52,744 nucleotides of DNA from a virus (taxonomy: Duplodnaviria > Caudoviricetes). The stretch's first letter is position 1, and every line of letters begins with the position of its first letter. Below are positions 1-52,731 of the stretch, piece after piece. The notes beneath the pieces were generated by a model. That model was not told where the DNA came from. It searched no databases and saw only the letters and a list, made by a program, of their open reading frames with translations. The stretch covers positions 1 to 52,744 of the IMG/VR virus record IMGVR_UViG_3300037113_000050; one strand, written 5' to 3'. Position numbers and translations under genes: made by a program.

Positions 1-33
1 CCAACGCCGATTGTCTCCAGCAACTTGTTAGGC
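1..33 (-). repeat. Partial attC-like site (truncated by window start)
   Basis: ...tgtctccagcaacttGTTAGGC, same arm/box pattern as the other sites. Confidence 0.75.
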
Positions 34-314
34 GGCTTTACGAGGCTCGCCAATCCGCTGCCGCTGCCAAAAAAGTGATGCAGGAAGCCGCTGAAAAACT
101 TGGACGCTGCGAAGGCTGCCACGGCGGCGATGACGAAGCAAGCGGGACTCGCTGCTACCAATCTCGCGAATTGGCGAAAGAAAAGTGGTGCGACATCTGC
201 AAAACCAAACTGCCGCTCTGGGAGGACTATCGGCACAAATCAAACATGGCTGGGGCTTCACTTCGGATGGTCTTAAAACACGCGCAATCTCTGCCGTCTA
301 ACGTAGAAAGCTGA
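3..314 (+). CDS. Cassette ORF, Cys-containing hypothetical protein (5' end probably off-window)
   Basis: Frame is open from position 3 through the attC arm; ends PSNVES inside the next attC. Confidence 0.65.
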   Translation, partial: NADCLQQLVRRLYEARQSAAAAKKVMQEAAEKLGRCEGCHGGDDEASGTRCYQSRELAKEKWCDICKTKLPLWEDYRHKSNMAGASLRMVLKHAQSLPSNVES

Positions 315-423
315 GCCACGGGCATCGTGAGCCAGCATAACCAAAGAAAGAAAATACAATGACTGAATCAAACATCCAAAACGACAAGGCGCAATGCCCG
401 TTGGCTCCGGCGACTTGTTCGGC
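296..423 (-). repeat. attC-like site 1
   Basis: GTCTAAC...gctgagccacgggcat / atgcccgttggctccggc...GTTCGGC; arms pair with extrahelical bases. Confidence 0.88.
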
Positions 424-435
424 GAATCGAATTTT

Positions 436-717
436 ATGAAAACAGTCACAATACAAATCGGTAACTCGGACGATAAACTAACTCAAACCGAGTGGGCAGC
501 TTATGTGCTGATGATGCGGACAAACATCCTGCAACACTGCACCGCCGTCCAATTCTTCGGTGCTCCTGCAAACTGGGAGCGATGGCAAAACGTGGCGTGG
601 GTAGTCGTCTGCAAAGACGCCAAACTAGCCGCACTCAAAGCCGCAGTCACGGATGTGCGCTCAACTTTCAACCAAGACTCTGCCGCGTGGACAGAGGGTG
701 AGACTCAATTCGCCTAA
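436..717 (+). CDS. Cassette ORF, hypothetical protein
   Basis: ATG overlaps the leader stop (ATGA); TAA lies in the R box GCCTAAC. Confidence 0.75.
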   Translation: MKTVTIQIGNSDDKLTQTEWAAYVLMMRTNILQHCTAVQFFGAPANWERWQNVAWVVVCKDAKLAALKAAVTDVRSTFNQDSAAWTEGETQFA

Positions 718-993
718 CGAAAAAAGCTGAGCCACGGCCACTGTGACTCGGCGCAACCGAAGAAAAACTATGGCACAAGCAACATATCAAAAGCAGCGGG
801 TGATAGACGCCGCAACCAAAACGGCGACAAGCTATCGCGAGCAAATCATCGAACATTACCAGCGCGAAAAAGAGAGCAAAGAGAAACGAATCGTGGCCGC
901 GATGCAACCGCGCTGGTGGTGCGGCGCTTCGTGGTGCAACTGCGATGAGAAGCGGAAGGAACAGCGCTCATCGGCTCCGGCGATTTGTTCGGC
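712..993 (-). repeat. Chimeric attC-like site 2 (mismatched arms, ~220 bp coding insert)
   Basis: Left half 712-745 and right half ~963-993 pair only in the gagcc/ggctc core. Confidence 0.6.
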
Positions 994-1168
994 AGCACGG
1001 GCGCGAATAGACGATTCTGTGCGGCAAGTCTGGATGGCATACCGAGACGCATCCGACGTGAGTGTGGACATGCTGACTGAACAAGACATGGAACTGTGGG
1101 GCATCGTGACTCGTCACGTGGCCATACAGGACAGGCTAAACGCCATGCTGCCGAACGACCGGAGCTAA
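770..1168 (+). CDS. Fused cassette ORF, hypothetical
   Basis: Reads through the attC right arm (SAPAICSA); ends PNDRS in the next attC. Confidence 0.6.
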   Translation: MAQATYQKQRVIDAATKTATSYREQIIEHYQREKESKEKRIVAAMQPRWWCGASWCNCDEKRKEQRSSAPAICSAARARIDDSVRQVWMAYRDASDVSVDMLTEQDMELWGIVTRHVAIQDRLNAMLPNDRS

Positions 1169-1261
1169 GGCATCCCGGACTAATGACTTATGAATGACCA
1201 AGAATCTTTACGGCAAACTGAAGGCGTCCAACCGGGATTGCCTTCAGCGACCTTGTTGGGC
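1150..1261 (-). repeat. attC-like site 3 (near-identical to 3268-3379)
   Basis: GCCGAAC...gctaaggcatcccgg / ccgggattgccttcagc...GTTGGGC. Confidence 0.85.
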
Positions 1262-1287
1262 ATAGCGATTAACGACATACAAATAAA

Positions 1288-1506
1288 ATGATAACTGCAA
1301 CCGAATGGCTAACTAGCCCCAACATCGCTCGGCGAGCAACCGAACAAGATTGCGTCGAATGGATAAAACAAATCCAAGCCGATGCGCTCCGTCACGCCGC
1401 CGACATAGCCGAGTCTTACGACAACGAATCTCATCATGGTAATGACACCATGACCAAACAAAACATCGCGTCAGAAATACGCGCCGCCGCCCTGACATCT
1501 TCGTGA
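1288..1506 (+). CDS. Cassette ORF, hypothetical
   Basis: ATGA-coupled to leader 1190-1291. Confidence 0.7.
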   Translation: MITATEWLTSPNIARRATEQDCVEWIKQIQADALRHAADIAESYDNESHHGNDTMTKQNIASEIRAAALTSS

Positions 1507-1613
1507 TAATCTCCGCGCCAGAAAACGCGACCGATGCGGAACTGCAATCACTGGCAGAAATCGAGGCAATGCAGAAAACCTACCTGTGGTCAAAAAAACA
1601 AGTGCGGCCCAAC
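1490..1613 (+). pseudogene. 3' remnant of the cassette gene found intact at 3308-3598
   Basis: 124 bp match to 3418-3541 with about 9 mismatches counted by eye; out of frame with the upstream ORF. Confidence 0.8.
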
Positions 1614-1728
1614 ATAAAAGCTGAGCCGCCGCCTGTGAGCGGTGGTGAGGCGCAAAGGAAACATCCAAATGAGTAACGACATCCAAACGGACAGCAATAA
1701 GGCGGTTGCCTCCGGCGATTGGTTAGAG
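1607..1728 (-). repeat. attC-like site 4
   Basis: GCCCAAC...gctgagccgccgcct / aggcggttgcctccggc...GTTAGAG. Confidence 0.8.
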
Positions 1729-1974
1729 CCAGCCGTCAAATCCATGAAGAACAGATTAAGTGATACAATCTTTTGTAGTGACATGGCTAAAATACCGAAT
1801 GCGCCGGACTGCTGTGCGTCCTGTCACGAGGACTGGAATGAAGGATATGACAACCCTGAATGGCGGGAACCGGATAAAACCATTCCGCACAAATACTGCC
1901 TATGCTGTGCGATGCGCTTATTTGCAGAAACGCAGGCTGGCTCTAACATAAAAGCTGACGCAAGCCGCACCTGA
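1669..1974 (+). CDS. Cassette ORF, Cys-rich (possible Zn-binding) protein starting inside attC
   Basis: CCASCH and YCLCC motifs; start codon in the attC loop. Confidence 0.7.
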   Translation: MSNDIQTDSNKAVASGDWLEPAVKSMKNRLSDTIFCSDMAKIPNAPDCCASCHEDWNEGYDNPEWREPDKTIPHKYCLCCAMRLFAETQAGSNIKADASRT

Positions 1975-2049
1975 CGCATGAAACAACCACAAAACCGAAG
2001 CGAACAACTCGCAGCGCCAACCGTCATTGGCTCCGGCGACTTGATAGGC
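1941..2049 (-). repeat. attC-like site 5 (degenerate, GAT in place of GTT)
   Basis: CTCTAAC...cattggctccggcgacttGATAGGC; arms pair poorly. Confidence 0.7.
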
Positions 2050-2084
2050 CACGGCTGATAATCTGGACACACTAAACGACAAAT

Positions 2085-2294
2085 ATGAAAACAAACAAAC
2101 AAACGAAATCGGTCAAACCAATCCCGAAACCAAACTTTGTCAATAAATGCGAAGGCTGGTCTTTCGACTATGGCTTCGTCAGCGACATCGCCGAAGAATG
2201 CCGAAAGCTCGACGAGGACTTTGCGCCAAGCATGGAAGGCGTGGACGATGTGCTGAAAGTGCTTAAAAAACGCGGTCATATCGTAGTGGCCTAA
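2085..2294 (+). CDS. Cassette ORF, hypothetical
   Basis: Stop TAA lies in the R box. Confidence 0.7.
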   Translation: MKTNKQTKSVKPIPKPNFVNKCEGWSFDYGFVSDIAEECRKLDEDFAPSMEGVDDVLKVLKKRGHIVVA

Positions 2295-2388
2295 CATCCG
2301 AAGCTGAGCCATGACGCCACAAGAGACATCCAACCGCGAAGCGGAACTGACCGCGCCACCGCGCATTGGCTCCAGCGCCTTGTTCGGC
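2289..2388 (-). repeat. attC-like site 6
   Basis: GCCTAAC...gctgagccatg / cattggctccagc...GTTCGGC. Confidence 0.88.
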
Positions 2389-2395
2389 GGATAAT

Positions 2396-2608
2396 ATGAC
2401 AACTCAAAATACATGGCCAAACGGAGTCCGTCACGCGATGCACCAAAGCGACCACGAATCGTGGAACGCTCGAAACTATCCCGGCACAAGGCAACTCTGC
2501 TCAAAATGCGGCGAACCGACCGAACGATGCGAGGAAGATGCCATCTGGAACGATGACGGCGAACCTCTTTGTTCATCGTGCGCATATCCGCCTAACGACC
2601 GCGCATGA
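2396..2608 (+). CDS. Cassette ORF, CxxC...CxxC zinc-finger-like protein
   Basis: CSKC and CSSC motifs. Confidence 0.7.
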   Translation: MTTQNTWPNGVRHAMHQSDHESWNARNYPGTRQLCSKCGEPTERCEEDAIWNDDGEPLCSSCAYPPNDRA

Positions 2609-2688
2609 GCCACGGCGCGAATAACGACGTGAACCGCGAAGCGGAACTGACAGCGCCCACGCGCATTGGCTCCGGCGACTTGTTAGGC
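2590..2688 (-). repeat. attC-like site 7
   Basis: GCCTAAC...gagcca / tggctc...GTTAGGC; loop shares aaccgcgaagcggaactgac with site 6. Confidence 0.88.
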
Positions 2689-2715
2689 AGCAAAACGTGA
2701 ACTGACATAAAATCT

Positions 2716-3045
2716 ATGAAAGCAAAAGTCTCAAGTCTGTATCGGAACGGCAGAAACCTTCCGACAAACAAAGTATCCGGCACTGCCGAAGGCGACCTAA
2801 ACCTAGCCGTGAGCAAGCATCCTGTGACTGGACGTTGCACGCATGAAGCCTGCGTGCTGAATGATGACGGTCACTCACTTCTACCAGACCTGTATGATGT
2901 GACGTGCGTATCAATCTCCGCCGCCGGATTCCGGCTGCGCGGAATAGAAATAAAATCTGGTCGTGAGGTCTCACAAGAATGGTGGTGTATGCCAATGCTG
3001 CCTAACGTGGAGGTCAGCCACCGCCGGGCTGACGTAACCAAATGA
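2716..3045 (+). CDS. Cassette ORF, hypothetical phage-type protein
   Basis: Clean ORF between attC sites, stop inside the next attC. Confidence 0.75.
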   Translation: MKAKVSSLYRNGRNLPTNKVSGTAEGDLNLAVSKHPVTGRCTHEACVLNDDGHSLLPDLYDVTCVSISAAGFRLRGIEIKSGREVSQEWWCMPMLPNVEVSHRRADVTK

Positions 3046-3089
3046 AACTGACGCGGCCAACGGCGGTTGGCTGCACCGATTTGTTAGGC
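3000..3089 (-). repeat. attC-like site 8
   Basis: GCCTAAC...ggtcagccaccgccg / cggcggttggctgcacc...GTTAGGC. Confidence 0.88.
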
Positions 3090-3094
3090 GATAT

Positions 3095-3286
3095 ATGACA
3101 TACGAATCATGGGAAGATGAAATAGAACGTAGCGGCTGGTCTTTTGGACTCAGCACGCAAAAACAAATGCTGGCTGACTGGCGAACCGACCGCGCCGAGT
3201 GGCGTGCCGCTCTAAAAGAATCACGGCAAGAAATCGCCCGCCTGAAAGAAAGCTCGAAACCAATATCGCCTAACGCCGGGAGCTAA
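3095..3286 (+). CDS. Cassette ORF, hypothetical
   Basis: ATGA-coupled to leader 3042-3098. Confidence 0.7.
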   Translation: MTYESWEDEIERSGWSFGLSTQKQMLADWRTDRAEWRAALKESRQEIARLKESSKPISPNAGS

Positions 3287-3379
3287 GGCATCCCGGACTA
3301 ATGACTTATGAATGACCAAGAATCTTTACGGAAAACTGAAGGCGTCCAACCGGGATTGCCTTCAGCGACCTTGTTGGGC
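3268..3379 (-). repeat. attC-like site 9
   Basis: Near-identical copy of site 3. Confidence 0.85.
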
Positions 3380-3598
3380 CGCACGGTCGAATGGGAAATC
3401 GTCCTGAGCGGCGGACACCCTGACATCTTTGTGATAATCTCCGCGCCAGAAAACGCGACCGATGCGGAACTGCAATCACTAGCAGAAATCGAGGCAATGG
3501 CAAAAACCTACATCTGGTCGAAAAAACGAGTGCGGCCCAACGACGCGCTATGCCATCCCGCATCTGCGGTGCGGCATTCCACGGGCGCTACCGATTAA
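3308..3598 (+). CDS. Cassette ORF starting inside attC, hypothetical
   Basis: N-terminal 24 aa encoded by the attC; the paralogous fragment differs largely by synonymous or conservative changes. Confidence 0.75.
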   Translation: MNDQESLRKTEGVQPGLPSATLLGRTVEWEIVLSGGHPDIFVIISAPENATDAELQSLAEIEAMAKTYIWSKKRVRPNDALCHPASAVRHSTGATD

Positions 3599-3641
3599 AC
3601 GGACGCGGCCAATAGGGATTGGCATCAGCAACTTGTTAGAT
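3535..3641 (-). repeat. attC-like site 10
   Basis: GCCCAAC...gctatgccatccc / gggattggcatcagc...GTTAGAT. Confidence 0.85.
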
Positions 3642-3670
3642 GCCGAATCAACGACAACCAAATAAAAAAT

Positions 3671-3871
3671 ATGGGACAAGCCAAAAGACGCGGAACATAC
3701 GAGCAACGCCGCCAAGCGGCAATCGCACGAACAATGCCGACATCATCGCCTGAAACGATGAACGCGGCATATAAACAGCCACGCCGCCCCATGCGACGCG
3801 GGAACATGATAATGGCTGCCGCGATGCTGAGAGCAATGGCGTGGTCGGTGCCGCCCCGCCGAGGCATCTAA
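3671..3871 (+). CDS. Cassette ORF, small basic protein (MGQAKRRG N-terminus)
   Basis: Stop in the R box ATCTAAC. Confidence 0.65.
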   Translation: MGQAKRRGTYEQRRQAAIARTMPTSSPETMNAAYKQPRRPMRRGNMIMAAAMLRAMAWSVPPRRGI

Positions 3872-3958
3872 CGCTCAAGCTGAGCCAAGCCGCCAATGAA
3901 AACTCAAGAAAAACAGATGGACGCACGCGGCGGCTTTGGCTCCGGCGACTTGTTAGGC
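3866..3958 (-). repeat. attC-like site 11
   Basis: ATCTAAC...gctgagccaagccgcc / ggcggctttggctccggc...GTTAGGC. Confidence 0.88.
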
Positions 3959-3981
3959 ATAGCGATTAACGACATACGAAT

Positions 3982-4173
3982 ATGACATTCAAAAGATTCA
4001 GCAAACTTTGGGATACCTTTGTGACCAATCGGCCAAAGGCATCAAATCAAACTCCGCTTGCGGAACATAAGATGAACGAAGCGACATCAACCGCGCTCAT
4101 AGAATACGCGAACGGCGACAAATCAAAAATCAACGCAGTCCGCAAAAAGCTAAACCGCCGCCGCGATGCCTAA
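3982..4173 (+). CDS. Last cassette ORF, hypothetical
   Basis: ATGA-coupled to leader 3896-3985; stop in the lone R box GCCTAAC 4168-4174. Confidence 0.7.
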   Translation: MTFKRFSKLWDTFVTNRPKASNQTPLAEHKMNEATSTALIEYANGDKSKINAVRKKLNRRRDA

Positions 4174-4190
4174 CAACAGAATATGAGTCT

Positions 4191-4454
4191 ATGGCATCAT
4201 TCTTTAAACATCGTAACCAACGGCAGGACAAGCGGAAACGACAATTAGAAAAGTTGAAGCGCTGGCGAGAAGCAAAGGCGCGAAAGCATCAAGAAGCCAT
4301 TTCCGCCGGTTGGTTGCCTGAGCCACGTTTTATCCGGTCGTATCTCTACGAATACGGTATCCGCAATGTCGTCACCGGAGAAACCCATTGGCGAACACTG
4401 ACCAGCGCAAGGCAGGCGTCAAAGGCGTTGGGTCTGATAATGAAATTCATTTAA
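4191..4454 (+). CDS. Hypothetical basic protein
   Basis: ORF converging on the late operon. Confidence 0.6.
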   Translation: MASFFKHRNQRQDKRKRQLEKLKRWREAKARKHQEAISAGWLPEPRFIRSYLYEYGIRNVVTGETHWRTLTSARQASKALGLIMKFI

Positions 4455-5065
4455 TGCGGGATTGACGCTGGAGCCAGCACACCATTTTGCACCTGCCATC
4501 CAGCCTGATACTGTTTACACAGTTCTTGCATCGGCAGCAAATCCGCAGGCGTGTGCGCGTTCCATATCGGGCCACCGGCAATTTTCACAGTCGCCCATGC
4601 GGCGTTGCGCTGGAACCAGTTCGCGCCTAGGTCTTGCAGGTCTTGCAACAGTTGCCAGTCAGTTTCCGCTTTAGACTTGAGCTGGCAGCAATACCCCTTG
4701 TCGTGCCGTATCCATGCGGCGGAATATTGGCCTATCTTCGGTAGGAACGCATCCAACCAATCGCCACCATCGCTATCCGTCATACCGCTGCGGTAGTCCG
4801 TCGTCCAGACCGGCAGATTCATCATGTCGTCAAGTGTTCCAGCACTAGACGGGGGGATGATTTCAAACGTGCCGTCTGGATTCAGAGCGGCGAACGGCAA
4901 CGTGATGATCCAGTCGTCCGGCGCTGTTTGCAGCGTGTCTGGATACGCCATTGTCGCCGACGTATAGACGAATTTCTGGCACGGATTCCCGGCAACCAGC
5001 CGCTGTCCCTTTATGGCAACAGTGGCTTTCGCCATTCGTTTATCGGCTGATTGCCGGAAGTTCAT
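4451..5065 (-). CDS. DUF1353-like protein (true start may be 4951)
   Basis: TDSDGG...YSAAWIRHDKGY...ETDWQLLQDL pattern typical of phage DUF1353. Confidence 0.6.
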   Translation of the reverse strand: MNFRQSADKRMAKATVAIKGQRLVAGNPCQKFVYTSATMAYPDTLQTAPDDWIITLPFAALNPDGTFEIIPPSSAGTLDDMMNLPVWTTDYRSGMTDSDGGDWLDAFLPKIGQYSAAWIRHDKGYCCQLKSKAETDWQLLQDLQDLGANWFQRNAAWATVKIAGGPIWNAHTPADLLPMQELCKQYQAGWQVQNGVLAPASIPH

Positions 5066-5068
5066 TGG

Positions 5069-5707
5069 TCAAAATCCTTTCGACCATCCAACCCACAGGT
5101 GGTAAATATCCCGCCCGACGGTGGCCGTGCCCTGCCACATTTCATACATCAGGCCGACATTCACCGCCCCACCCAACGCCTGGCATACCCCAAAATCCAC
5201 GCCAGCTCCCTCACGGGTCACTGCGGAGCCGCCAGAGCCAAGCGATGCGTTCATTGGGGTGCCTACGCCCGCAATCACCAGCGGGGTCATGGTGACGCCG
5301 GGCAGGCCATACGACGCCAGCGGGTGGGTTGGCAACTGGATCTTGATGTCCGCCGAAATCATTTGCCAGTTCCGGTTCCAATAATCCACGCCGACGCCCG
5401 CACCGACGTAACGGGTCATGTCGTAAAATGCCATGAGTCCGCCGCCGAATTGCTCCTTGGTCTTGCCGCTGGCCGGCGAGTAGCTCCCGTAAGCGAATGC
5501 ACCGACGTTGGTCACATTCTCAACGTCCTTCCACACGTTCACAATCGGCTCGTAAAACGGATTGCCGTTGGTGGAAAGTGCGTTGGTCACAACGATGTCC
5601 TGCCCGTGCGCCCGGCATGAATTGCCGATGCTCCACAGAAGCAGACAGGCGACGATAAAGATGGCCAGTCCGCAGGACACGTCCGCTTTTTTGAGGGGGT
5701 GTTTCAT
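5069..5707 (-). CDS. Exported, outer-membrane beta-barrel-like protein
   Basis: Hydrophobic N-terminal segment, Gly/aromatic alternating strands, C-terminal WSKGF. Confidence 0.5.
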   Translation of the reverse strand: MKHPLKKADVSCGLAIFIVACLLLWSIGNSCRAHGQDIVVTNALSTNGNPFYEPIVNVWKDVENVTNVGAFAYGSYSPASGKTKEQFGGGLMAFYDMTRYVGAGVGVDYWNRNWQMISADIKIQLPTHPLASYGLPGVTMTPLVIAGVGTPMNASLGSGGSAVTREGAGVDFGVCQALGGAVNVGLMYEMWQGTATVGRDIYHLWVGWSKGF

Positions 5708-5711
5708 AAAT

Positions 5712-5810
5712 TCAGATTTTCCGTAAATCATCCAGCCCGACAATTACCATGATGGCGACAAGTCCGGCAAGGCAGAATCCGCAGCCGAATAATGCGACGA
5801 GCGTTTTCAT
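5712..5810 (-). CDS. Small single-TM protein
   Basis: 32 aa hydrophobic ORF, ATGA-coupled to the peptidase stop. Confidence 0.4.
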   Translation of the reverse strand: MKTLVALFGCGFCLAGLVAIMVIVGLDDLRKI

Positions 5811-6574
5811 TGCGCGACGGTCTTGATCTGCCAAAAGTCGTCTGCAAGCGAGGCGTTGGTCAAATAACTGTATGGGATGGTGAAATATCCCGCCATGCCC
5901 CAAGTGGTATTCCATGAATTGCGCACGATAAACACCTGCTTGGCCTCAATGTAGCCCACCCCAACGACCGCGTGGCCGCCTACCACGCGCTCGCCCGGCG
6001 CTGGCATCGGTGCAATGCCGGTCTTCGCCACGGCGGCTGACTCAAAGCTCTCATAGACCGTGAAGCCGAACACAAACGGCAGCCCTGTGGCAAGGCACCC
6101 CTTGAGCTGATCCAGCGTCGGCACGATGCGTTGGTAAAGTATCGCCTTGTATTTCAGGCCGTCCAAATAGCAGGCCGGCGTCGGTCGCATTTTGAACTTT
6201 GTGACATAGTAGGGCCACTCCGGTTCCGGGCACGCGCCTTGCTTGACGACGGTCTTGATGCCGTCGCGGATCTGTGCGCCGGAGTCTGATTTGGTGGTTC
6301 CCTCAAGCGCCCGCTCGTTGTAGTAAATCATCAGGCGCGACGGGGTAAAATCGTTAATCCTCTGCTTGATGCGGTCAAATTCAAGCGCCCCGGCGATGGC
6401 GTTGGCGGTGCAACTGCCGAGCTGGCCCTGGTCGTAAACCGGCGGGCATTGCGGGCGCAGGTCAACCAGCGGCGGCAGCGGGCCGACCGGGGCCGGTGCG
6501 GCGTAGAGACGGTCGCGCTGGTCAGGCAAATCGGCAACCCAGCCCATGCTATGATGTTGAGGAATGATGTTCAT
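5807..6574 (-). CDS. Papain-family (C1A) cysteine peptidase
   Basis: DQGQLGSCTANA, GGHAVVGVGY and VRNSW catalytic Cys/His/Asn motifs. Confidence 0.92.
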   Translation of the reverse strand: MNIIPQHHSMGWVADLPDQRDRLYAAPAPVGPLPPLVDLRPQCPPVYDQGQLGSCTANAIAGALEFDRIKQRINDFTPSRLMIYYNERALEGTTKSDSGAQIRDGIKTVVKQGACPEPEWPYYVTKFKMRPTPACYLDGLKYKAILYQRIVPTLDQLKGCLATGLPFVFGFTVYESFESAAVAKTGIAPMPAPGERVVGGHAVVGVGYIEAKQVFIVRNSWNTTWGMAGYFTIPYSYLTNASLADDFWQIKTVAQ

Positions 6575-6578
6575 GGTA

Positions 6579-6779
6579 TTATTTCTCCTGCGGTTTCGCC
6601 GTGGCGTTACTCGCTGCGGTGGCAATGTAAATCAGCAGAGCCAGCTTGGTCGCATCGAATTGGGATTTGTATTGCGGAAACCAGATTCCACCCAGTTGAC
6701 AAACCAGAGCCGCCAGCGCGGGCCAGCGGATGTGATTATTCTGAACCAACGTCGTCAGGTTATTGATGAGATTTTTCAT
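6579..6779 (-). CDS. Holin-like small membrane protein
   Basis: 66 aa, two hydrophobic segments, at the end of the late operon. Confidence 0.5.
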   Translation of the reverse strand: MKNLINNLTTLVQNNHIRWPALAALVCQLGGIWFPQYKSQFDATKLALLIYIATAASNATAKPQEK

Positions 6780-6782
6780 AGT

Positions 6783-7112
6783 TCAATGTTTTCCCAGCCA
6801 CCAGTTTACCAACGCTTCCCCGACAACCGTCAGGCAACCGCCCAAGACCGTGCAGATGATAACCATCATGGCCTGCCCGCCCTTGCGCTGTGCGTCCGCC
6901 ATTTCCATCACAGTCAACCGCCGGTTATATTCGACCATCACACTTTCCAACCGGGTGCAAGCTGCCGGGTCAGGACACGCTTTCTGGTTTTTTACGATGG
7001 CCATATCCTCACAAAGTTGATTCAGCTTGCCAAACAGTTTCCCCATGTCCTCACGGCGCTCACGCCGCTCGTTGTCAAGTGCCAGTCGCAAATCGTTATT
7101 CTCTTGGCTCAT
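6783..7112 (-). CDS. Coiled-coil plus C-terminal TM protein (holin-like)
   Basis: Architecture common in phage lysis modules. Confidence 0.5.
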   Translation of the reverse strand: MSQENNDLRLALDNERRERREDMGKLFGKLNQLCEDMAIVKNQKACPDPAACTRLESVMVEYNRRLTVMEMADAQRKGGQAMMVIICTVLGGCLTVVGEALVNWWLGKH

Positions 7113-7265
7113 AAAGGTTTTAAATCAGCATCGCCTTTGCGCTCTGCGCGTGGTTTCCAGTCGGTGGTCATAGGTTACCGGAGTATTTCTTTCACGCTAA
7201 TCAGCCAGATTCCGTTCGCGACCTTGAACTTAGCGAGGGCATCTGCCGCATAGGTGATTGGGGTG

Positions 7266-30644: not shown

Positions 30645-31337
30645 TTAGGAAGTTGTGATGTTGCCCGTGGTGTTACCGACAATGTTATTTCCAAGACCCA
30701 TCGCGTTCAACATTTCTTGGAACTGGTTCAACTGGTTGGTGGAATTAAACTGGTTTTGATTTTGGTTCAGGTTATTGTTAAACTGTGTGTTCTGTTGGTC
30801 TTGCGATTGGGTGAACTGGTTTTGATTTTGGTTCAAGTTTTGGTTGAACTGTGTGTTCTGCTGACCTTGAGACTGATTGAACTGGTTGTTGGCCTGATTC
30901 AGTGAATTCTGATATTCCGTAAGCTGCTGGCTCTGCGCTTGCGTATTTTCAGCGTTTTGCTGCGCCAATGAATTTGCCGCCTGTGTATTCTGATTTTGAA
31001 CGCTTTGATTATTCGTTGCAGCCGTTGTATAAGTTCCAAGCAGCGAGTTTAAATCACTCAATCCAGTCTGCTGGTTCGCATTCGCCTGCGTGTTGTAAAG
31101 GTCGCTACCACGAGCATCAATGAAGGAATTTACATCGTTTCCAGCCGTTTGGCCATTGGCGGCACCATAGTAGGCGTTCGTTGTCCGGGCTTGTGACGCC
31201 GAAGGCAACCCGTTAAGCAAGTTTCCAATGACCCCAGTGGCGCTGGTGGTGAGATTGCCCACGCCGGGCAGGACGGATTCAAGCCAATTTTGTGAGTCCG
31301 ATGTTACTGGTTGTCCAGTTGCAGTTGTCGTTGCCAT
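30645..31337 (-). CDS. Gln/Asn-rich putative ejection/pilot protein
   Basis: NQNQNQF-type 11-residue periodic repeats. Confidence 0.55.
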   Translation of the reverse strand: MATTTATGQPVTSDSQNWLESVLPGVGNLTTSATGVIGNLLNGLPSASQARTTNAYYGAANGQTAGNDVNSFIDARGSDLYNTQANANQQTGLSDLNSLLGTYTTAATNNQSVQNQNTQAANSLAQQNAENTQAQSQQLTEYQNSLNQANNQFNQSQGQQNTQFNQNLNQNQNQFTQSQDQQNTQFNNNLNQNQNQFNSTNQLNQFQEMLNAMGLGNNIVGNTTGNITTS

Positions 31338-43929: not shown

Positions 43930-44862
43930 TCATTTTACGTTCGAGGCGGCGCTGTCGGCGTCTTGCCTCAAGTCTGCGTTAGGGGTCCTTGCCATCATCC
44001 CAATCAGAGCGGCGGCGACTTGCGGCACGATGGCGTTGCCGAGTCCTTTAAGTCTGTCCACCCGGTTGGGTAGCCCATTAACCACTCGACAAATTGCGGG
44101 TTCAGGCTCCCACCGATTTCCGCATTGAGCGGTTTCGTGTTCCTCACCATTTGCGACGGGGCGCCGTTGTTCTTCGCGTCCTGCGCCGTTGGCGTCGGCC
44201 ACATTTTCACGGCGAGAGTCAGCGGCGGCGTTGAGACTTTCCCCGCGTCCCGGCGCCGCGTCCACGATTCTTCCGTTTCGTCCGTCGTCTTGCCCGCTCG
44301 CGGCGTGGGCCACAATCCATACTCGGTTTCTTCGGTGTCTGGCATCTGTGGCGCAAGCTGGAATAGCAACCGGCCACGCGGAGTAGCCGAGACTTTCCAA
44401 GTCAGCAAGCACACGGTCGAGTTCCATTGTGATGATTCCAGGCACATTTTCACCAAGCACCCAGCGGGGTTTGGCCTCATCAATAACGCGGAGCATTTCA
44501 GGCCAGAGCGCACGGTCATCTTCCGCGCCTCTGCGCTTCCCGGCGAGACTGAATGGCTGGCAAGGAAATCCGCCTGTGAGTAGCCAAGTTCCATTGAAGG
44601 GTTTTCCGTCAAATTTGCAGATATCATCATAGATTGGAATGTCCGCGAAGTTTTTCCGCAGGACTTTTTGAGCGTAGGCGTCTTTCTCCACGAAGGCCAC
44701 GGTTTGCACTTCATTCATTCGCGCAGCCAGGGCGAAGCCGCCGATGCCACTGAAAAGGTCTAGGTGGGTTCGACGGACACCTAACAAGCGCACGGAGCCA
44801 ACGCCTATTGGCGTCGTCAGTCCGCTATCGCGGGCGGGAGTCGTTGGTGCGGCGTGGCTCAT
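43930..44862 (-). CDS. C5-cytosine DNA methyltransferase, alpha polypeptide (motifs I-VIII and X)
   Basis: LDLFSGIGG, GGFPCQPFS, ENV, HRRNRVWIV and LGNAIVPQ; start ATG lies in an attC arm. Confidence 0.9.
   Translation of the reverse strand: MSHAAPTTPARDSGLTTPIGVGSVRLLGVRRTHLDLFSGIGGFALAARMNEVQTVAFVEKDAYAQKVLRKNFADIPIYDDICKFDGKPFNGTWLLTGGFPCQPFSLAGKRRGAEDDRALWPEMLRVIDEAKPRWVLGENVPGIITMELDRVLADLESLGYSAWPVAIPACATDARHRRNRVWIVAHAASGQDDGRNGRIVDAAPGRGESLNAAADSRRENVADANGAGREEQRRPVANGEEHETAQCGNRWEPEPAICRVVNGLPNRVDRLKGLGNAIVPQVAAALIGMMARTPNADLRQDADSAASNVK
43950..43984 (+). repeat. Half attC-like site at the 3' end of the MTase
   Basis: cttgcctcaagtctgcGTTAGGG; partner arm not found. Confidence 0.55.
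44004..44714 (-). CDS. Overlapping-frame MTase beta polypeptide (TRD/motif IX-like); start uncertain
   Basis: WPTP repeats and LNPQFVEWLMGYPTGWT, entirely inside the alpha gene. Confidence 0.75.
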   Translation of the reverse strand: MKCKPWPSWRKTPTLKKSCGKTSRTFQSMMISANLTENPSMELGYSQADFLASHSVSPGSAEARKMTVRSGLKCSALLMRPNPAGCLVKMCLESSQWNSTVCLLTWKVSATPRGRLLFQLAPQMPDTEETEYGLWPTPRAGKTTDETEESWTRRRDAGKVSTPPLTLAVKMWPTPTAQDAKNNGAPSQMVRNTKPLNAEIGGSLNPQFVEWLMGYPTGWTDLKDSATPSCRKSPPL

Positions 44863-44877
44863 GCGCGGTCGTTCGGC
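44779..44877 (+). repeat. Complete attC-like site in the replication operon
   Basis: ACCTAAC...ggagccaacgcc / ggcgtggctc...GTTCGGC; shares aacgaccgcgcatgagccacg (minus strand) with site 7. Confidence 0.88.
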
Positions 44878-47913: not shown

Positions 47914-48102
47914 TTAATCCTGTTCCACGTCGCGCTCATGGTCGGCGGCGTCGGCCTTGCGATCCTCGATGTCTTCGGTCGTCACTGGGACTTCACCTTC
48001 ACCTTTGCAGTCAGGACACACTTGCATTTCTTCATCGCCAAAATGATGGTTAATTTCGGCGGTATTGCAGCCCGGCGGCAAGTCCCAGCCAAAAGGATTC
48101 AT
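47914..48102 (-). CDS. Small CxxCxGxG protein
   Basis: CPDCKGEG motif. Confidence 0.5.
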   Translation of the reverse strand: MNPFGWDLPPGCNTAEINHHFGDEEMQVCPDCKGEGEVPVTTEDIEDRKADAADHERDVEQD

Positions 48103-49100
48103 AAAGTTGCCCCTAGGTCGTCGCCAATAGGTTTAGGTGCATGCGTTTCAGGATTTTTAAATTCTGTCATGCCAGCACACTTCCGATAATTCCAACAGTC
48201 TTCCGGCCCGATGATTTGAGTATTTCCAAAAGGGATTCCAACCGGCGGAAACGACGGCCATTCTCCGGTTGAAAGGCATTGGCAATAACGCTTCAAAGCC
48301 ATCCTATATTTCGTCCGGCCCCAGTCCAGAAATTCAGACGACATGGCCGGTGGCGGGGTGACGACGTGAAATGGAAATACATTCTCTTGGACGATGTGGA
48401 CAAAATCAACCCGCTCTTCTGCCGTCGCGGCGCAGTAAATATCGCGGTAAAGTGACGCCTGAATGTCGTATGATTGGTCTTCAATCACACGCGCCCACGT
48501 CGCCGGGTTTCCATTGCGCGCAGTTTTGAAGTCAGCCAACCACTTGCCGAAAATCGGATGATCCGACGGTGGCACAAGGTCAAGCAGGATTCGAAGCGGA
48601 ACCTCAATCCCAGTCGCCTCATCTTTCCAAGCCGCGACGCAGAACACCTGCTTTTGTGACGCAGCAAAGAGTGCTGCGATCAGGTCACTGCCACGAATCG
48701 CGGCAACCGCTTTATCCGCGTCAGCCTTTGTGTCAGACTTAATTATAGTCTTGTCTCCCTGCTCTTTTTTCCATTCCTTGCAGAAAGTGGCAGCGCCTGT
48801 CCATGGCTTCGCTTCGCCAGTCTTCTTGTCGGGATAAGTTTCCGGCGACACGGAAAACATTGCTTCAAACTTTTCCGGCGAAGTCAGCAGACAGTCAATC
48901 ATGCTGCCCCATTTCGTTGAATCGGTTTCCGACAGCTCCTCACGATAGCCAGCCAACCAGCGCGCCGGGTTGCTGGCGAAGTTTACGATCTCGCCACGCG
49001 ACATGATAAATGCCGGATTGCCACGGAACATCCCTGGCTCTTGTCTGGAATAATCCTTGTAAGATACGTTGTCACCGATTATTTTCGCTTTCGTAATCAT
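48099..49100 (-). CDS. RecE/exonuclease VIII-like PD-(D/E)XK nuclease
   Basis: LDLVP...ADFKT and YDIQASLY motifs. Confidence 0.8.
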   Translation of the reverse strand: MITKAKIIGDNVSYKDYSRQEPGMFRGNPAFIMSRGEIVNFASNPARWLAGYREELSETDSTKWGSMIDCLLTSPEKFEAMFSVSPETYPDKKTGEAKPWTGAATFCKEWKKEQGDKTIIKSDTKADADKAVAAIRGSDLIAALFAASQKQVFCVAAWKDEATGIEVPLRILLDLVPPSDHPIFGKWLADFKTARNGNPATWARVIEDQSYDIQASLYRDIYCAATAEERVDFVHIVQENVFPFHVVTPPPAMSSEFLDWGRTKYRMALKRYCQCLSTGEWPSFPPVGIPFGNTQIIGPEDCWNYRKCAGMTEFKNPETHAPKPIGDDLGATL

Positions 49101-50044
49101 TTTTGCCCTTTCAGTTTCTTTTCAACAAGGTTGGTTATGCTGGTCAGTTCGGCAGCGGTCAGACTTTCAAGGTGCTTGTCTGGCTCCATCAAGACTTCAT
49201 CCCATAGCCATTGCTCAAGCGCGGATTTATCGCCGCTGTGAATATGTTTAGTGGAGTCCCAAAGAATCTTTTTGAGATGGCTGATTTCATCCCCAGTTGT
49301 TGCCTTTTTTGCAACAGGTGGTTTTCCGGCGGCGTTACACCATTCGGCCAGAGCCATTCCGTGTCCAACCATGATCGGTGTCGTCTTGTCTTTCGGAAAG
49401 CAATCCCGCAGTGAAGGGTGACTGCATTTTGTGAGGATGATGGAATGATTTTGCAGAATCTCAAAGTGACAGGTGGCTTCAAAGATGAAGTCCTCGGCTT
49501 GAATCGGCGACGTGGCCTCGTCCTTTATCAGGACGGTTTTACCCTGCTCGTTCTTCGTCTGCCGTGTTTTGTATTTCGCCCGCAGGCAAACAATGATCGG
49601 GATTTTCGTCCGCAGCAACCGTTGGACAAATTTCGCGTGTTCAAATTTCGGCGCCTTCCAGCAATGCAATCCAGTCTTGCCGGTGCGCTGTTCAATCTCA
49701 CCTGCCATATCCAGGACTCCGCCAATACCTTCCCATTCGTGCGAGCCTGAATCAATAATTCCGACTGCTGCGCCGCTGGATTCAATGGCATCCACGGCCT
49801 CGACGTATCGAGCCGGGGCGAATGGTGCGGCCAGATCAAACGTCTCAAAACCGCCCGGCAGCACGTCCGCGTAAAGGCTGGCGCGGCCCGACTCCGAATC
49901 AGCGACAACTATCTTGCCGGACGCCCCGGCCATGCCACGGGCCAGCAGGAGCGCGGAATAGGTCTTTCCGCATCCGCTTTCGGAATACGCGACGATCAGC
50001 GGGTTAATGCCGACACGGGTCGCGGTTTTTATTTCAAAGTTCAT
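49097..50044 (-). CDS. AAA-type ATPase, Sak4-like recombination protein
   Basis: SESGCGKTYSAL and IIDSGSHEWEGIGG motifs; next to the exonuclease. Confidence 0.78.
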   Translation of the reverse strand: MNFEIKTATRVGINPLIVAYSESGCGKTYSALLLARGMAGASGKIVVADSESGRASLYADVLPGGFETFDLAAPFAPARYVEAVDAIESSGAAVGIIDSGSHEWEGIGGVLDMAGEIEQRTGKTGLHCWKAPKFEHAKFVQRLLRTKIPIIVCLRAKYKTRQTKNEQGKTVLIKDEATSPIQAEDFIFEATCHFEILQNHSIILTKCSHPSLRDCFPKDKTTPIMVGHGMALAEWCNAAGKPPVAKKATTGDEISHLKKILWDSTKHIHSGDKSALEQWLWDEVLMEPDKHLESLTAAELTSITNLVEKKLKGQK

Positions 50045-50502: not shown

Positions 50503-50697
50503 TTAGTAGAGGTCTTGTTTTCTTTGCGTTCCGGGTTTCGGTTGAAATTCGAGCAGGATTTGCTTGGTCACGATGTCAAGCTGCACGTCCACGACTGGCG
50601 ACCAGAAGTCGTCAATCTCGACGCCCGGCACAAAGGCATTCACCTCATAAAGAGGCGGCAGTTTTTGCAGCCGTTCAATTAGTTCCTCGGTGGTCAT
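50503..50697 (-). CDS. Hypothetical protein
   Basis: MTTEELIERLQKLP phage-type N-terminus. Confidence 0.55.
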   Translation of the reverse strand: MTTEELIERLQKLPPLYEVNAFVPGVEIDDFWSPVVDVQLDIVTKQILLEFQPKPGTQRKQDLY

Positions 50698-51077
50698 AAT
50701 TTTGAATCCTCCCCGCCAGCGGCCCGTGACGGCACCGCATAGCCCGACATGGGTGCGGCCTCATTAGTCTGGCACTCATTGGTGTATTTAGCGTCACCAC
50801 GAGGCCCGTCCGGTTGTACGTCTGGCAAGGAGGAAATTCTAGGCTTGCAGCCGACTGAAATGTTAGGCATCGCGGCGGCGCGAAGTTTTAGTCCGAGCGG
50901 GATTGAGTTTTCAAACGGACAATCCTCGATCCAGATTGCTGCGGTTTTCATTAGCTCTTTGGCTTCGTTTAGCTCGCGTTCAATTTTTGCGTAAGCATCT
51001 ATGATTTCAATCCCGCTGATTAAATCAGCATCATATCGGTTGCGAAGTTCGTCTGTTCTTGGTGTTTCAGTTTTCAT
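50694..51077 (-). CDS. Hypothetical protein containing a cassette-terminus sequence
   Basis: ETPRTD N-terminus; 20 bp identical to the end of the last array cassette. Confidence 0.6.
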   Translation of the reverse strand: MKTETPRTDELRNRYDADLISGIEIIDAYAKIERELNEAKELMKTAAIWIEDCPFENSIPLGLKLRAAAMPNISVGCKPRISSLPDVQPDGPRGDAKYTNECQTNEAAPMSGYAVPSRAAGGEDSKL

Positions 51078-51416: not shown

Positions 51417-51602
51417 TTACGTTAGACGCTGGTCTATTCCTTTTGCATCGCACAGGTCGGCACCGCGCAGGTCGGCACCGAACAGGTCGGCACCGCACAG
51501 GGCGGCATCGTTTTTTAATGCTGTGCAAACCGCTTTTGAGATATTTTCAAAATCACCCTCAAAAAGCAGATTTCCAAAAATGGATTTGATTTGGATATTC
51601 AT
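51417..51602 (-). CDS. Short (probably truncated) pentapeptide-repeat protein
   Basis: AALCG-ADLFG-ADLRG-ADLCD repeats. Confidence 0.65.
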   Translation of the reverse strand: MNIQIKSIFGNLLFEGDFENISKAVCTALKNDAALCGADLFGADLRGADLCDAKGIDQRLT

Positions 51603-52145: not shown

Positions 52146-52161
52146 CTTGAAATATTTCAAG
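52146..52161. promoter_or_regulatory. Perfect 16 bp palindrome (operator candidate)
   Basis: CTTGAAAT-ATTTCAAG in the divergent control region. Confidence 0.5.
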
Positions 52162-52260
52162 CTATTTTTTCAACTATTTTCTGGCGTATCAACATTACCC
52201 TTTGTTTGCAATAGTTTTTGAGTGAATTTATTTTGAAAACAAATCACGCAAAATAAATCG

Positions 52261-52288
52261 TTGACTTTGCTGCGAACGGTAGTAGTAT
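52261..52288 (+). promoter_or_regulatory. Sigma70-like promoter for the Cro-like gene and cassette array
   Basis: TTGACT-16bp-TAGTAT, with the ATG 6 nt downstream (leaderless-type). Confidence 0.55.
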
Positions 52289-52294
52289 CAAGGA

Positions 52295-52471
52295 ATGAAG
52301 AAAAAAACCATCGCCGACGTGCTACAAAGGTGGCGTAAGAAAAATGGCTACTCCCAACAAAAGGCGGCGTCCCTTCTGGAATGTTCCATTGCCACGATTC
52401 AGTCCTGGGAACAGGAACGGAACGAGCCGCTGCCGCAAACCGCTGATTTTATCCGGGAGAAATGCAAATGA
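52295..52471 (+). CDS. XRE/Cro-like HTH regulator (58 aa, absent from the ORF track)
   Basis: MKKKTIADVLQRWRKKNGYSQQKAASLLECSIATIQSWEQERNEP. Confidence 0.85.
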   Translation: MKKKTIADVLQRWRKKNGYSQQKAASLLECSIATIQSWEQERNEPLPQTADFIREKCK

Positions 52472-52731
52472 AACCATGCCCGTTGGCTCCGGCGACTTGT
52501 TCGGCGATTCCTGCGAGTCATCTGGACTTCTGCCGTGAAGTCGGAAGGCTCGCAAAAGAGCATAGACTAAACCGAGTTACGATCACTTTCCAGCCGGGGT
52601 TCCGCGATGAGTGGAGGGACCAAATAAGCGCGACGTGGGAGAGTGGCCGACACGAAGAGGAAGTGGGTATAATCCACGTCGAAAGCACCGTGCGCGTTCA
52701 CACGAGTATTTCGCCGAACGTAGAAAGCTGA
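52468..52731 (+). CDS. First cassette ORF, hypothetical
   Basis: ATGA-coupled to the Cro-like gene; N-terminus encoded by the half attC; ends PNVES. Confidence 0.7.
   Translation: MKPCPLAPATCSAIPASHLDFCREVGRLAKEHRLNRVTITFQPGFRDEWRDQISATWESGRHEEEVGIIHVESTVRVHTSISPNVES
52476..52505 (-). repeat. Half attC-like site fused to the Cro-like gene end
   Basis: 52476-52507 identical to 394-425. Confidence 0.8.

Follow-up and report, generated by a model that had tools for sequence, protein, structure and literature searches.

We found that two short sequences on either side of small ORFs form a widespread, linked pair of flanks on the reversed cassettes of Verrucomicrobia integrons and phages. Flank searches recovered the 19-nt 5' flank at 46 sites from 41 sources, and the 44 ORFs enclosed in such shells (44-109 aa) fell into 29 blastp clusters with no link between clusters at E<=1e-3; the search and tabulation that a previous sequence-only reading had suggested thus returned 29 unrelated ORF clusters. 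The 3' flank was present in 29/29 bodies that carried the 5' flank vs 4/144 without it, and in host loci picked by the attC motif alone the 5' flank occurred in 0/322 further bodies (1/328 counted per set). Since the set was collected by exact match, the invariance of the 19-mer is partly built in, and the 3' flank and spacer statistics are unaffected. Shell cassettes also lay on bacterial chromosomes, in arrays whose neighbours were gcvP, RHS and transposase genes and where no phage genes were seen, and no "empty" shell was found among the shell sites. We propose, at about an even chance of being right, that the two flanks are the two-part adapter of a single subfamily of reversed cassettes belonging to Verrucomicrobiae (Limisphaerales-type) integrons and phages.

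The window, that is, the whole 52,744-nt stretch of DNA analysed, is an entire phage record that is 94% complete. It holds one complete shell (3956-4175), one shell truncated by fusion (1259-1490) and one relic in a replication-module gene (50861-50880) (Table 1). The 22-mer GGCATAGCGATTAACGACATAC, which had been read as a 5' flank ahead of two unrelated ORFs, was present in exactly two copies, at 1259-1280 and 3956-3977, both on the plus strand (0.00 matches in shuffles), within a wider repeat of 34 nt (1252-1285 vs 3949-3982, 94% identity), and the products of 1288-1506 and 3982-4173 had no blastp similarity, with no pair even at E<=10. The 20-mer CGCCGCCGCGATGCCTAACA recurred inverted, as had been stated, with exactly two copies at 4156-4175 (+) and 50861-50880 (-) and 0.00 matches in shuffles, and the reported identity between the end of gene 1288 and 50872-50882 was confirmed by the 11-mer CGCGCCGCCGC, of which exactly two copies existed (1480-1490 on the plus strand, 50872-50882 on the minus strand; shuffle mean 0.09, at least two matches in 0/100 shuffles). 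The description of one shell around three genes held in full only for 3982-4173, as the 3' flank is cut in 1288-1506 and stands alone, in frame, in 50694-51077.

Table 1. Features of the shells, attC-type sites and related genes in the window
Feature	Position	Strand	Evidence
attC-type site variant 'a', upstream of first shell cassette	1150..1261	+	nhmmer model 1-99; 96% identical to 3268-3379
Leader ORF from inside attC through 5' flank	1190..1291	+	sequence; stops at TGA overlapping ATG at 1288
5' shell flank, copy 1	1259..1280	+	last 3 nt of R box plus 19-mer; exact match
Shell-cassette ORF with its own 3' end lost	1288..1506	+	family cluster; nucleotide and protein alignments
Truncated 3' shell flank	1480..1490	+	ends with CGCGCCGCCGC; fusion joint after 1490
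Second-ORF remnant fused behind gene 1288	1483..1613	+	homologue of 3411-3541, 91% identity
attC-type site variant 'a', copy 2	3268..3379	+	nhmmer; repeat comparison
Intact ORF starting inside attC 'a'	3308..3598	+	undisturbed version of what is split in 1190-1676
attC-type site upstream of complete shell cassette	3868..3958	+	nhmmer model 3-99; DNA fold
Leader ORF through attC arm and 5' flank	3896..3985	+	sequence; TGA overlaps ATG at 3982
5' shell flank, copy 2	3956..3977	+	exact match
ORF in complete shell	3982..4173	+	ends ...RRRDA; stop TAA inside R box
3' shell flank and lone R box (array end)	4156..4175	+	exact match; no attC arm behind
Solitary attC-type site heading C5 DNA methyltransferase cassette	44780..44877	-	nhmmer
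PDDEXK (DUF3799) and AAA_24 (Sak4-like) genes	48099..50044	-	Pfam E 1.2e-11, 4.2e-8
Long hairpin module, last ~50 residues of gene	50690..50838	-	alignment; DNA fold
3' shell flank relic	50861..50880	-	exact match; reads RAAAMPN
Stretch matching shell cassette in locus L148	50861..50981	-	blastn 121 nt, 91.7%
First attC-type site of array	52425..52505	+	nhmmer model 19-99, E 1.6e-6; first 18 profile positions absent

About 13 integron attC sites in an array make up the early operon of the phage. An nhmmer profile built from 120 host attC sites (model positions 1-99) matched 14 sites in the window, and the inverse core sites RYYYAAC ... GTTRRRY were found at the ends of about 12 full sites within 1-4175 and of the minus-strand site 44780-44877. 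The sites were 90-128 nt long, within the range of about 57-141 nt of the imperfect palindromes that mark attC sites, and their DNA folds comprised an R-box stem, an internal loop, an L-box stem and a variable tip, with z-scores of only -0.6 to -3.4. The same motif was dense in arrays of Verrucomicrobiae MAGs, with Verrucomicrobia or Limisphaerales labels in 60/80 among the matches listed; intI scored above the TIGR02249 cut-off in 4/4 genomes tested, arrays abutted intI on the same contig in G003:C60 and G004:C10, and the host attC family was uniform, with a 99-nt consensus and 292 copies in one genome (G001). Core sites, palindrome fold and kinship with intI-adjacent arrays were all present, and the window sites are, as far as their sequences tell, attC sites of the host type, from the family that fills Verrucomicrobiae chromosomal integrons beside intI.

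The phage promoter region and an HTH gene (52295-52471, HTH_3 domain), whose 3' end is overlapped by the first site of the array, drive the array. A promoter scan for the sigma-70-like type gave 4 sites vs 2.7 +/- 1.8 in shuffles, none of them in the shell flanks. A half site (CCCTAAC...) lies behind the methyltransferase gene, near 43985, and behind the array end at 4156-4175 nhmmer with the host profile matched no further site of the array. Across the whole record there was no PF00589 match at E<=1, that is, no tyrosine recombinase, so the phage is without an integrase; the array is a CALIN (at least two close attC sites with no integron integrase nearby) and not a complete integron, in which intI with attI and Pc would stand beside the array.

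The phage cassette genes lie on the strand opposite to that of the host cassette genes. Counting an ORF as reversed when its strand corresponds to the attC bottom strand, we obtained 225 canonical, 16 reversed and 87 ambiguous ORFs in host arrays (n=328), 2, 20 and 9 respectively in the window and viral loci (n=31), and 1, 16 and 12 among shell cassettes (n=29). The canonical layout, with the ORF on the attC top strand and ending at or before R'', did not describe the window and viral loci. Within this attC family the flanks of sites are in general not conserved and most sites have no shell flanks, so the adapter would be dispensable for most reversed cassettes, about 10 in the window included.

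The spacer between the 5' flank and the ORF equalled 1 mod 3 (4, 7 or 10 nt) in 34/40 sites (25/29 clusters, P=6e-9), and the 5' flank formed an open frame ending in a TGA that overlapped the ORF ATG, with an ATGA stop/start overlap at 32/40 sites (23/29 clusters). Both window leaders have this overlap and an in-frame ATG, which precedes the flank by 24 codons in 1190..1291 and by 21 codons in 3896..3985. An in-frame ATG upstream was present at only 12/40 sites; at the others, translation would have to begin at a non-ATG codon or come from ribosomes that reinitiate. On the other side, the read-through frame at the 3' flank was used by 0/38 sites (0/24 clusters, P=6e-5), as ORFs entered this flank exclusively in the two frames with an immediate stop. 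The 3' flank was read in two frames, at 28 and 10 of 46 sites, and lay behind the stop codon at 3 sites, which points to a constraint on DNA and not on protein. Further, base pairing between the inner six bases of one flank and those of the other (5/6) lengthens the attC basal stem, which with the flanks had 3+10 pairs (-27.7 kcal/mol, z -3.0, 1/200 shuffles as good). These marks of selection on expression and folding argue that the flanks are functional adapters, not passive scars.

For such an adapter, we predict that the unit excised by the integron integrase would run from one RYYYAA/C to the next and consist of attC, 5' flank, ORF and 3' flank, and once the unit is circular, this order would place both flanks next to the attC of the same cassette. 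The 5' flank would be a translated leader, as its phase suggests, which would melt the attC hairpin in early mRNA and pass ribosomes by termination-reinitiation to an ORF without a Shine-Dalgarno, and the 3' flank would secure termination and folding. The adapter would reach new ORFs by ordinary recombination that is homologous along flank and attC arm and illegitimate where the ORF is joined, and finished units would be moved by host IntI through a putative activity on these sites as folded bottom strands.

When the two incomplete shells were characterized, gene 1288 proved to be a shell cassette that breaks off within its 3' flank and runs on into a second ORF, hence a decay product. Its family clusters with L154, L162 and L164, and members elsewhere end ...RAAAMPNEKS or ...RRDA, whereas gene 1288 matches the family up to the 11-mer and then runs on as the interior of a homologue of 3308-3598. 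The joint at 1490/1491, with microhomology of at most 1-2 nt as read from the aligned sequences, is the only non-homologous one in the window, and at 1259-1676 two cassette ORFs are joined and the intervening attC is lost, as in a fused cassette. The remnant differs from 3411-3541 at 6/41 codons (3 synonymous, 3 not) and may restart at GTG 1503, where stop and restart codons overlap as GTGA (1503-1506). The supposed core gene 50694-51077 is likewise a mosaic that holds a cassette relic, and a decay product too. The identity of 50861..50981 to the shell cassette in L148 stops at GCCTAACA, the R box; the hairpin module folds at -31.5 kcal/mol (z -3.5, 0/200 shuffles as good), and the tail that it encodes is also joined to unrelated N-termini in other proteins. 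Three joints in the window, those of the methyltransferase cassette, the array end and the relic in 50694-51077, lie at RYYYAA/C with non-attC DNA behind.

It is extremely improbable that the matches reflect chance or artefacts in the assembly of a repeat-rich metagenome contig. attC arrays are repeats and Logan contigs break there, and within the same samples the shell flank branches into other continuations (loose ends at 1266 and 3974), but shuffles expect 0.00, 0.00 and 0.09 matches for the three words, the same flank pair was present in 40 other contigs, and Logan contigs from two other, independent runs spanned 1232-1532, which covers the joint 1482/1483, as well as 3451-4400 and 3845-4400, stretches that include the array end and all of the 3982 cassette. 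The left joint 1261/1262 was left out of the bridged joints because only 30 or 27 letters lay on one side (threshold 31). Misassembly at the main joints is unlikely. We also give very little credence to the view that the ORFs in the shells all belong to a single fast-evolving family with conserved ends: they are similarly small and several have a ...TP(R/I)TD... motif near the N-terminus in common, yet the view is already contradicted, as blastp links are absent among the 29 clusters, the flanks are base-identical while the interiors are unalignable, and ORFs use the 3' flank in two frames and sometimes stop before it.

The flanks might instead serve purely as a recombination site, by extending attC or by supplying another core to which integrase binds, with increased mobility and no role in expression, which we consider rather unlikely. 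Such a site would fit the pairing of the inner six bases and the longer stem, the position of both flanks beside the same attC in the excised circle, the GATTAAC 5 nt past the R box (a 6-of-7 match to the inverse core) and the retention of the 3' flank even where it is non-coding; however, the pairing involves only 6/19 flank bases, most attC sites of the same family have no flanks, and neither the 3-nt phasing of the spacer nor the ATGA overlap nor the avoidance of one frame is predicted by it. Distinctly unlikely in our judgement is the model of the sequence-only reading, in which the phage acts as a cassette factory and its own exonuclease and annealing-protein pair swaps genes into existing attC shells through short homology. 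The phage does encode PDDEXK (DUF3799) and AAA_24/Sak4-like proteins, cassettes with unrelated ORFs share arms of uninterrupted identity across flank and attC arm (on the 5' side a median of 31 nt over 805 pairs, on the 3' side a median of 17 nt over 729 pairs), the chimeric cassette 1150-1613 consists of pieces joined inside a shell, and the cassette ORF 2716-3045 falls in phage family phrog_5560 (E 4e-9) and is weakly related to proteins of cultured Pseudomonas phages (30% identity, E 4e-4). Against it, flank homology can swap only ORFs that are already in shells and, with no homology on the ORF side, could not import the first copy of an ORF; the sole illegitimate joint of the window, with its 1-2 nt of microhomology at most, destroys a shell; the gcvP, RHS and transposase neighbourhoods place shell cassettes in bacterial chromosomes as well; and no comparative signal connects the joints with the two genes. 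With nothing tying these genes to the joints, the factory is not supported. What survives of the proposed swapping of genes into reusable shells is the shell around unrelated genes (29 clusters; 29/29 vs 4/144), and the supposed snapshot of cassette genesis gained no support.

None of the joints examined accounts for the first entry of an unrelated ORF between the flanks. On the origin of cassettes, a "native mechanism of cassette genesis" is named, without being specified, in the text of PMC8352920 cited here. Rather doubtfully, we presume that the flank pair might be the footprint of a templated making of reversed, phage-sense cassettes, in which arbitrary small ORFs would be captured between a fixed leader and a fixed tail, both attached to an attC, phages and Verrucomicrobial integrons would share a ready-to-express pool, and the relic and the 1490 fusion would be by-products. 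The shell class offers unrelated ORFs, base-identical sequence on both sides outside attC, and readable joints, and is material for a census (ORF origins, exact ends of homology) and for the bench (effect of the adapter on expression or mobility). Phages and the chromosomal integrons of their hosts have a pool of reversed cassettes in common, a route of gene traffic that would be missed in the usual top-strand view of integrons.

Sedentary chromosomal integrons such as the Vibrio superintegron have homogeneous attC families. The system described here resembles them in its uniform attC family, hundreds of copies per genome, intI at the array end and a stop often in the R box, and differs in the opposite orientation of the shell cassettes and in the 19 + 15 nt conserved outside attC. 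The PeSL mobile regulatory cassettes of T4-type phages are small early ORFs framed by a repeated stem-loop, which promotes their shuffling, and carry an early promoter. The cassettes in the window are likewise small early phage ORFs framed by a repeated stem-loop module, but the stem-loops are integron attC sites, and the sigma-70-like scan gave no excess of promoters and none in the shell flanks.

Previous studies reported that attC sites are taxon-specific (Ghaly et al. 2021, PMC8352920) and that phages contain 17 CALINs, each stated to have at least two sites (Qi, Rajabal, Ghaly, Tetu, Gillings 2023, PMC9892861). As in the phage CALINs of the cited text, an attC array of bacterial type lies between small genes with no integron integrase, and a DNA methyltransferase cassette is present; unlike them, our phage has about 13 sites of the exact family of its likely host's chromosomal integrons, genes on the reverse strand, and an invariant flank pair on a subset of cassettes, flanks of a kind that the cited text does not mention. 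Integrase-mediated insertion of cassettes outside integrons, at attG sites (Loot et al., 10.1101/2022.09.11.507474), recalls the three RYYYAA/C joints with non-attC DNA behind, but these are in a phage genome and only the relic has a cassette-like 3' side. Fused cassettes arise, in the account cited, by partial or total loss of attC (PMC8876359), which is consistent with the two joined ORFs and lost site at 1259-1676, except that the break here falls within the 3' shell flank and within the second ORF instead of at the attC edges. In the same account, ORF-11, ORF-17 and ORF-18 at attI1 and short ORFs in attC relay ribosomes to cassettes without an initiation region (PMC8876359); as in the ORF-11 type, a short frame here runs through the recombination site to a stop at, or adjacent to, the start codon, and unlike it, the leader, with a putative function, is on each cassette, in the attC bottom-strand sense, and keeps its phase in 25/29 clusters.

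A single shell, an invariant 5' flank and 3' flank around a small ORF, frames unrelated genes, as the sequence-only reading had claimed, and its cassettes are reversed integron gene cassettes. The 19-mer of the 5' flank, which lies directly after the R box, was found at 46 sites in 41 sources (29 ORF clusters): besides the window, one further viral contig had two copies together with the 20-mer of the 3' flank, and 39 metagenome contigs supplied 42 sites. GTT(A/G)GGC directly preceded the 19-mer at 44 of the 46 sites, and each 19-mer led via an A/T-rich spacer to the ATG of a short ORF (44-109 aa). Once the tails encoded by the flanks had been trimmed off, blastp at E<=1e-3 left 44 ORFs in 29 mutually unlinked clusters (a second count gave 45 sites and again 29 clusters). 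These sites were gathered, and thus ascertained, by exact match to the 19-mer, and the 3' flank played no part in their collection; among the metagenome loci so gathered, the 3' flank was present in 29/29 cassette bodies with the 5' flank and in 4/144 without it. The corresponding counts were 2/3 and 3/28 in the viral loci, and in the host loci, for which the attC motif was the sole criterion of collection, the 5' flank was absent from every body and the 3' flank was present in 2/322 (bodies already counted in other sets were omitted; per set, the 5' flank occurred in 1/328 host bodies).

Within the window, the 22-mer (the last 3 nt of the R box plus the 19-mer), the 20-mer and the 11-mer CGCGCCGCCGC are each present in exactly two copies, with means of 0.00, 0.00 and 0.09, respectively, in the dinucleotide-preserving shuffles that gave the chance expectation, and the proteins of the two shell ORFs were without similarity. 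With regard to misassembly, 17 runs each contained at least half of the words sampled from 1000-4400; almost all are metagenomes of peat or permafrost, and they may come from shared sampling campaigns. Contigs from two runs bridged the joint 1482/1483, providing independent assembly support, and contigs from two runs bridged the entire 3982 cassette with the array end; a bridge at 1261/1262 was not counted (just 30 or 27 letters on one side), and stretches without contig cover were left out of this evidence.

Coordinates of the shell copies, attC-type sites, genes and repeats in the virus record (strand where given)
Feature	Position	Strand	Remark
Split attC-type site, left part	712-748		profile positions 1-39
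Split attC-type site, right part	938-993		profile positions 42-99
ORF at split site	770-1168
attC upstream of gene 1288	1150-1261		96% identical to 3268-3379
Leader ORFs	1190-1291; 3896-3985
22-mer copies	1259-1280; 3956-3977
19-mer copies (5' flank)	1262-1280; 3959-3977
Gene 1288 (shell ORF)	1288-1506
11-mer copies (start)	1480; 50872	+; -
Second shell ORF	3982-4173
20-mer copies (3' flank)	4156-4175; 50861-50880	+; -
Array-closing joint	4174/4175
Peptidase-like gene	5807-6625		match at 5859-6544
ORF with 66-nt repeats	30645-31337	-	repeats at 30748-30945
C5 cytosine methyltransferase cassette	43985-44877	-
PDDEXK and Sak4-like gene pair	48099-50044	-
Tail module	50690-50838	-
15-nt tandem copies	51445-51504
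HTH gene	52295-52471
Promoter region with HTH gene	52155-52473		76% identical to L167:319-638

The operon repeats are the integron attC sites of the likely host. The window is a whole IMG/VR virus record (52,744 bases; completeness rating 94%). In it, a rightward operon is opened by the promoter region and HTH gene, leaves the record end, continues from base 1 and stops near 4454, facing leftward genes, of which the few with PHROG matches are tail- or peptidase-like. Imperfect palindromes of 90-128 nt, bounded on one side by RYYYAAC and on the other by GTTRRRY, separate the small ORFs of this operon. The conserved arm motif was found in dense arrays of metagenome-assembled genomes (up to 13 copies in 8 kb), and 60 of the 80 rows listed for this search were labelled Verrucomicrobiae, Verrucomicrobia subdivision 3 or Limisphaerales. 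All 4 of the 4 genomes tested had an integron integrase (399-413 bits against the TIGR02249 cut-off of 265); in two cases array and intI adjoin on a single contig, and one genome carried 292 motif copies. From the host, 279 sites were extracted, 225 of them 99 nt long, and a profile of 120 host sites returned 14 sites in the window, including one split and one solitary minus-strand site; the DNA folds of the window sites have the usual attC architecture. The host assignment is based on the attC family and on one gene, the peptidase-like gene (phrog_16701); over 700 nt this gene has 71% nucleotide identity to part of a Verrucomicrobiae metagenome-assembled genome (L064), a second link to this group. 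Phage CALINs are already in print (Qi et al. 2023, PMC9892861), and therefore, as far as the available text of that paper goes, this kind of array was already known.

ORFs of the host arrays lie on the strand opposite to that reading ...GGCTCCGGCGACTTGTTAGGC and head away from intI, which is the canonical layout, and the phage ORFs lie on the opposite strand from these relative to attC. By a strict call, host arrays had 225 canonical, 16 reversed and 87 ambiguous cassettes (total 328), and viral loci had 2, 20 and 9 (total 31); a looser count placed 42/49 on the reversed strand. The shell also occurs outside phages: several of the metagenome contigs represent bacterial chromosome, carrying glycine dehydrogenase, RHS, RCC1/DUF1559 and transposase genes, and on these the shell cassettes form a reversed minority among canonical neighbours.

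None of 10 cassette ORFs matched Pfam, and 2 of 10 matched PHROGs, both of unknown function. Searches against the fetched loci gave translated attC matches only and no cassette ORF homologue (tblastn, frames of both strands) and no common cassette bodies except attC, flank and the L148 stretch (blastn). No match to 1-8000 was found among GenBank phages by blastn, no tyrosine recombinase by a domain search of the whole record, and no Rfam family in the entire window. Several other features of the record were observed. About 190 nt part the halves of the split attC-type site, and an ORF begins inside this insert and reads across the right half. The C5 cytosine methyltransferase of the replication module forms a lone reversed cassette, with a full attC upstream and a half site (CCCTAAC…) behind the gene. 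A 15-nt unit (GCACCGCGCAGGTCG-like) is tandemly repeated in a non-coding part of the leftward early region, and the copies could be iterons or operator repeats; a minus-strand ORF contains a 66-nt repeat in three tandem copies, of which the other two are 83% and 61% identical to the first. The match of the promoter region and HTH gene to L167, a short metagenome contig with a shell cassette, indicates a related phage with a different array.

Both further flank copies in the window belong to altered cassettes. The sequence-only reading placed a 3' flank inside a core gene, 50694-51077; the copy is present, and 121 nt of this gene are common to the shell cassette of contig L148 (92% identity). 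The identity ends at GCCTAACA, beyond which L148 enters attC and the window does not. The other 54 codons are a separate module, the same tail standing behind unrelated N-termini in other proteins; therefore the supposed core gene is a mosaic holding a cassette relic. The tail, …SSxPDVQPDGPR…AAGGEDxKL, was also seen on proteins P0006, P0010 and P0012-P0014, and its module is an imperfect palindrome of about 125 nt forming a long hairpin (-31.5 kcal/mol, z -3.5), which resembles a further DNA module, mobile or structured, that ORFs read through. Joints at RYYYAA/C (slash marking the joint) with non-attC DNA behind also close the array, at the lone R-box site 4169-4175, and the methyltransferase cassette, and would be the trace expected of integrase-mediated insertion at secondary sites. 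Gene 1288 belongs to a shell family with L154, L162 and L164, relatives that end in the full 3' flank; it tracks L162 through ...ATACGCGCCGCCGC and then switches to the interior of the homologue of ORF 3308-3598, whose first 24 codons also form its leader. One joint lies at the R box; the other, as read from the alignment, is an illegitimate joint where no more than 1-2 bases are shared. In the downstream remnant 6/41 codons differ, 3 of them synonymous, and it could restart at a GTG overlapping the stop. The region is a cassette fusion or internal replacement, which may have arisen by deletion or by insertion. No attC-free relatives of gene 50694-51077 or of the 1288 family were found in viral contigs.

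A shell around unrelated genes does bear on how cassettes arise, as had been proposed. The window, with one intact unit and two decayed ones, does not show a snapshot of cassette genesis. The proposed agents, the PDDEXK and Sak4-like genes, exist, and no result implicates either. Flank-plus-arm identities between cassettes (medians 31 nt and 17 nt) could serve annealing recombinases to swap ORFs already in shells, and the pair cannot explain the first entry of an unrelated ORF into a shell. The flanks were also considered as a universal extension of the attC family, which was rejected because, beyond the R boxes, both consensus and information content were low in the viral, metagenome and host sets. 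Since attC flanks are generally not conserved, the shell is a subfamily of its own, to which 2 of the roughly 13 window cassettes belong; we found no published account of such flanks, a weak negative given incomplete literature coverage. Empty shells, with the 3' flank directly after the 5' flank, were absent among 51 sites (smallest distance 131 nt). In L158:85-350, a 7-nt direct repeat (GACATAC) brackets the shell ORF, and a six-codon mini-ORF behind it leads directly into the 3' flank; the arrangement may be the footprint of insertion into an empty shell, a single case from which we draw nothing. The same insert of about 180 nt parts the attC R box from the 19-mer in two metagenome contigs (L157:1338-1520; L183, minus, about 2533-2715 of the reverse complement), and thus the 5' flank can be uncoupled from attC.

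The constraint on the 3' flank acts at the level of DNA. Of 46 sites, 28 enter it in the frame ...AAMPN and 10 in ...RRDA-stop, 3 have it behind the ORF's own stop and the other 5 could not be scored; the third frame, which would continue through attC, was used by 0/38 sites and, with one site per cluster, by 0/24 (P=6e-5). When the unit is cut at RYYYAA/C, both flanks lie next to the attC of the cassette itself, the first six bases of the 5' flank pair with the last six of the 3' flank (5 of 6), and the fold with flanks acquires a base of 3+10 pairs (-27.7 kcal/mol, z -3.0, 1/200 shuffles as good). The 5' flank includes GATTAAC, which lies 5 nt after the R box and agrees with the inverse core RYYYAAC at 6 of 7 positions; it supplies an in-frame TAA for the frame reading through a 99-nt attC. 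A promoter in the 5' flank for the reversed ORFs was not backed by a sigma-70 scan (4 sites against 2.7 +/- 1.8, none in the flanks). The 5' flank is itself an open frame: among 40 non-redundant sites, the spacer to ATG is 4, 7 or 10 nt at 34, the frame closes with a TGA overlapping the ATG at 32, and ATGA stands at the ORF start in 37; with one site per ORF cluster, 25/29 are in phase (binomial P=6e-9) and 23/29 overlap. In the window, each of the two copies has a complete leader ORF that begins inside attC, and an in-frame ATG upstream was present at only 12/40 sites overall. According to the available text of PMC8876359, ORF-11 at attI1 and short ORFs inside attC sites act as a translational relay; the leader frame of the shell and its stop/start overlap match this arrangement, and we infer that the leader is translated in a relay-like manner.
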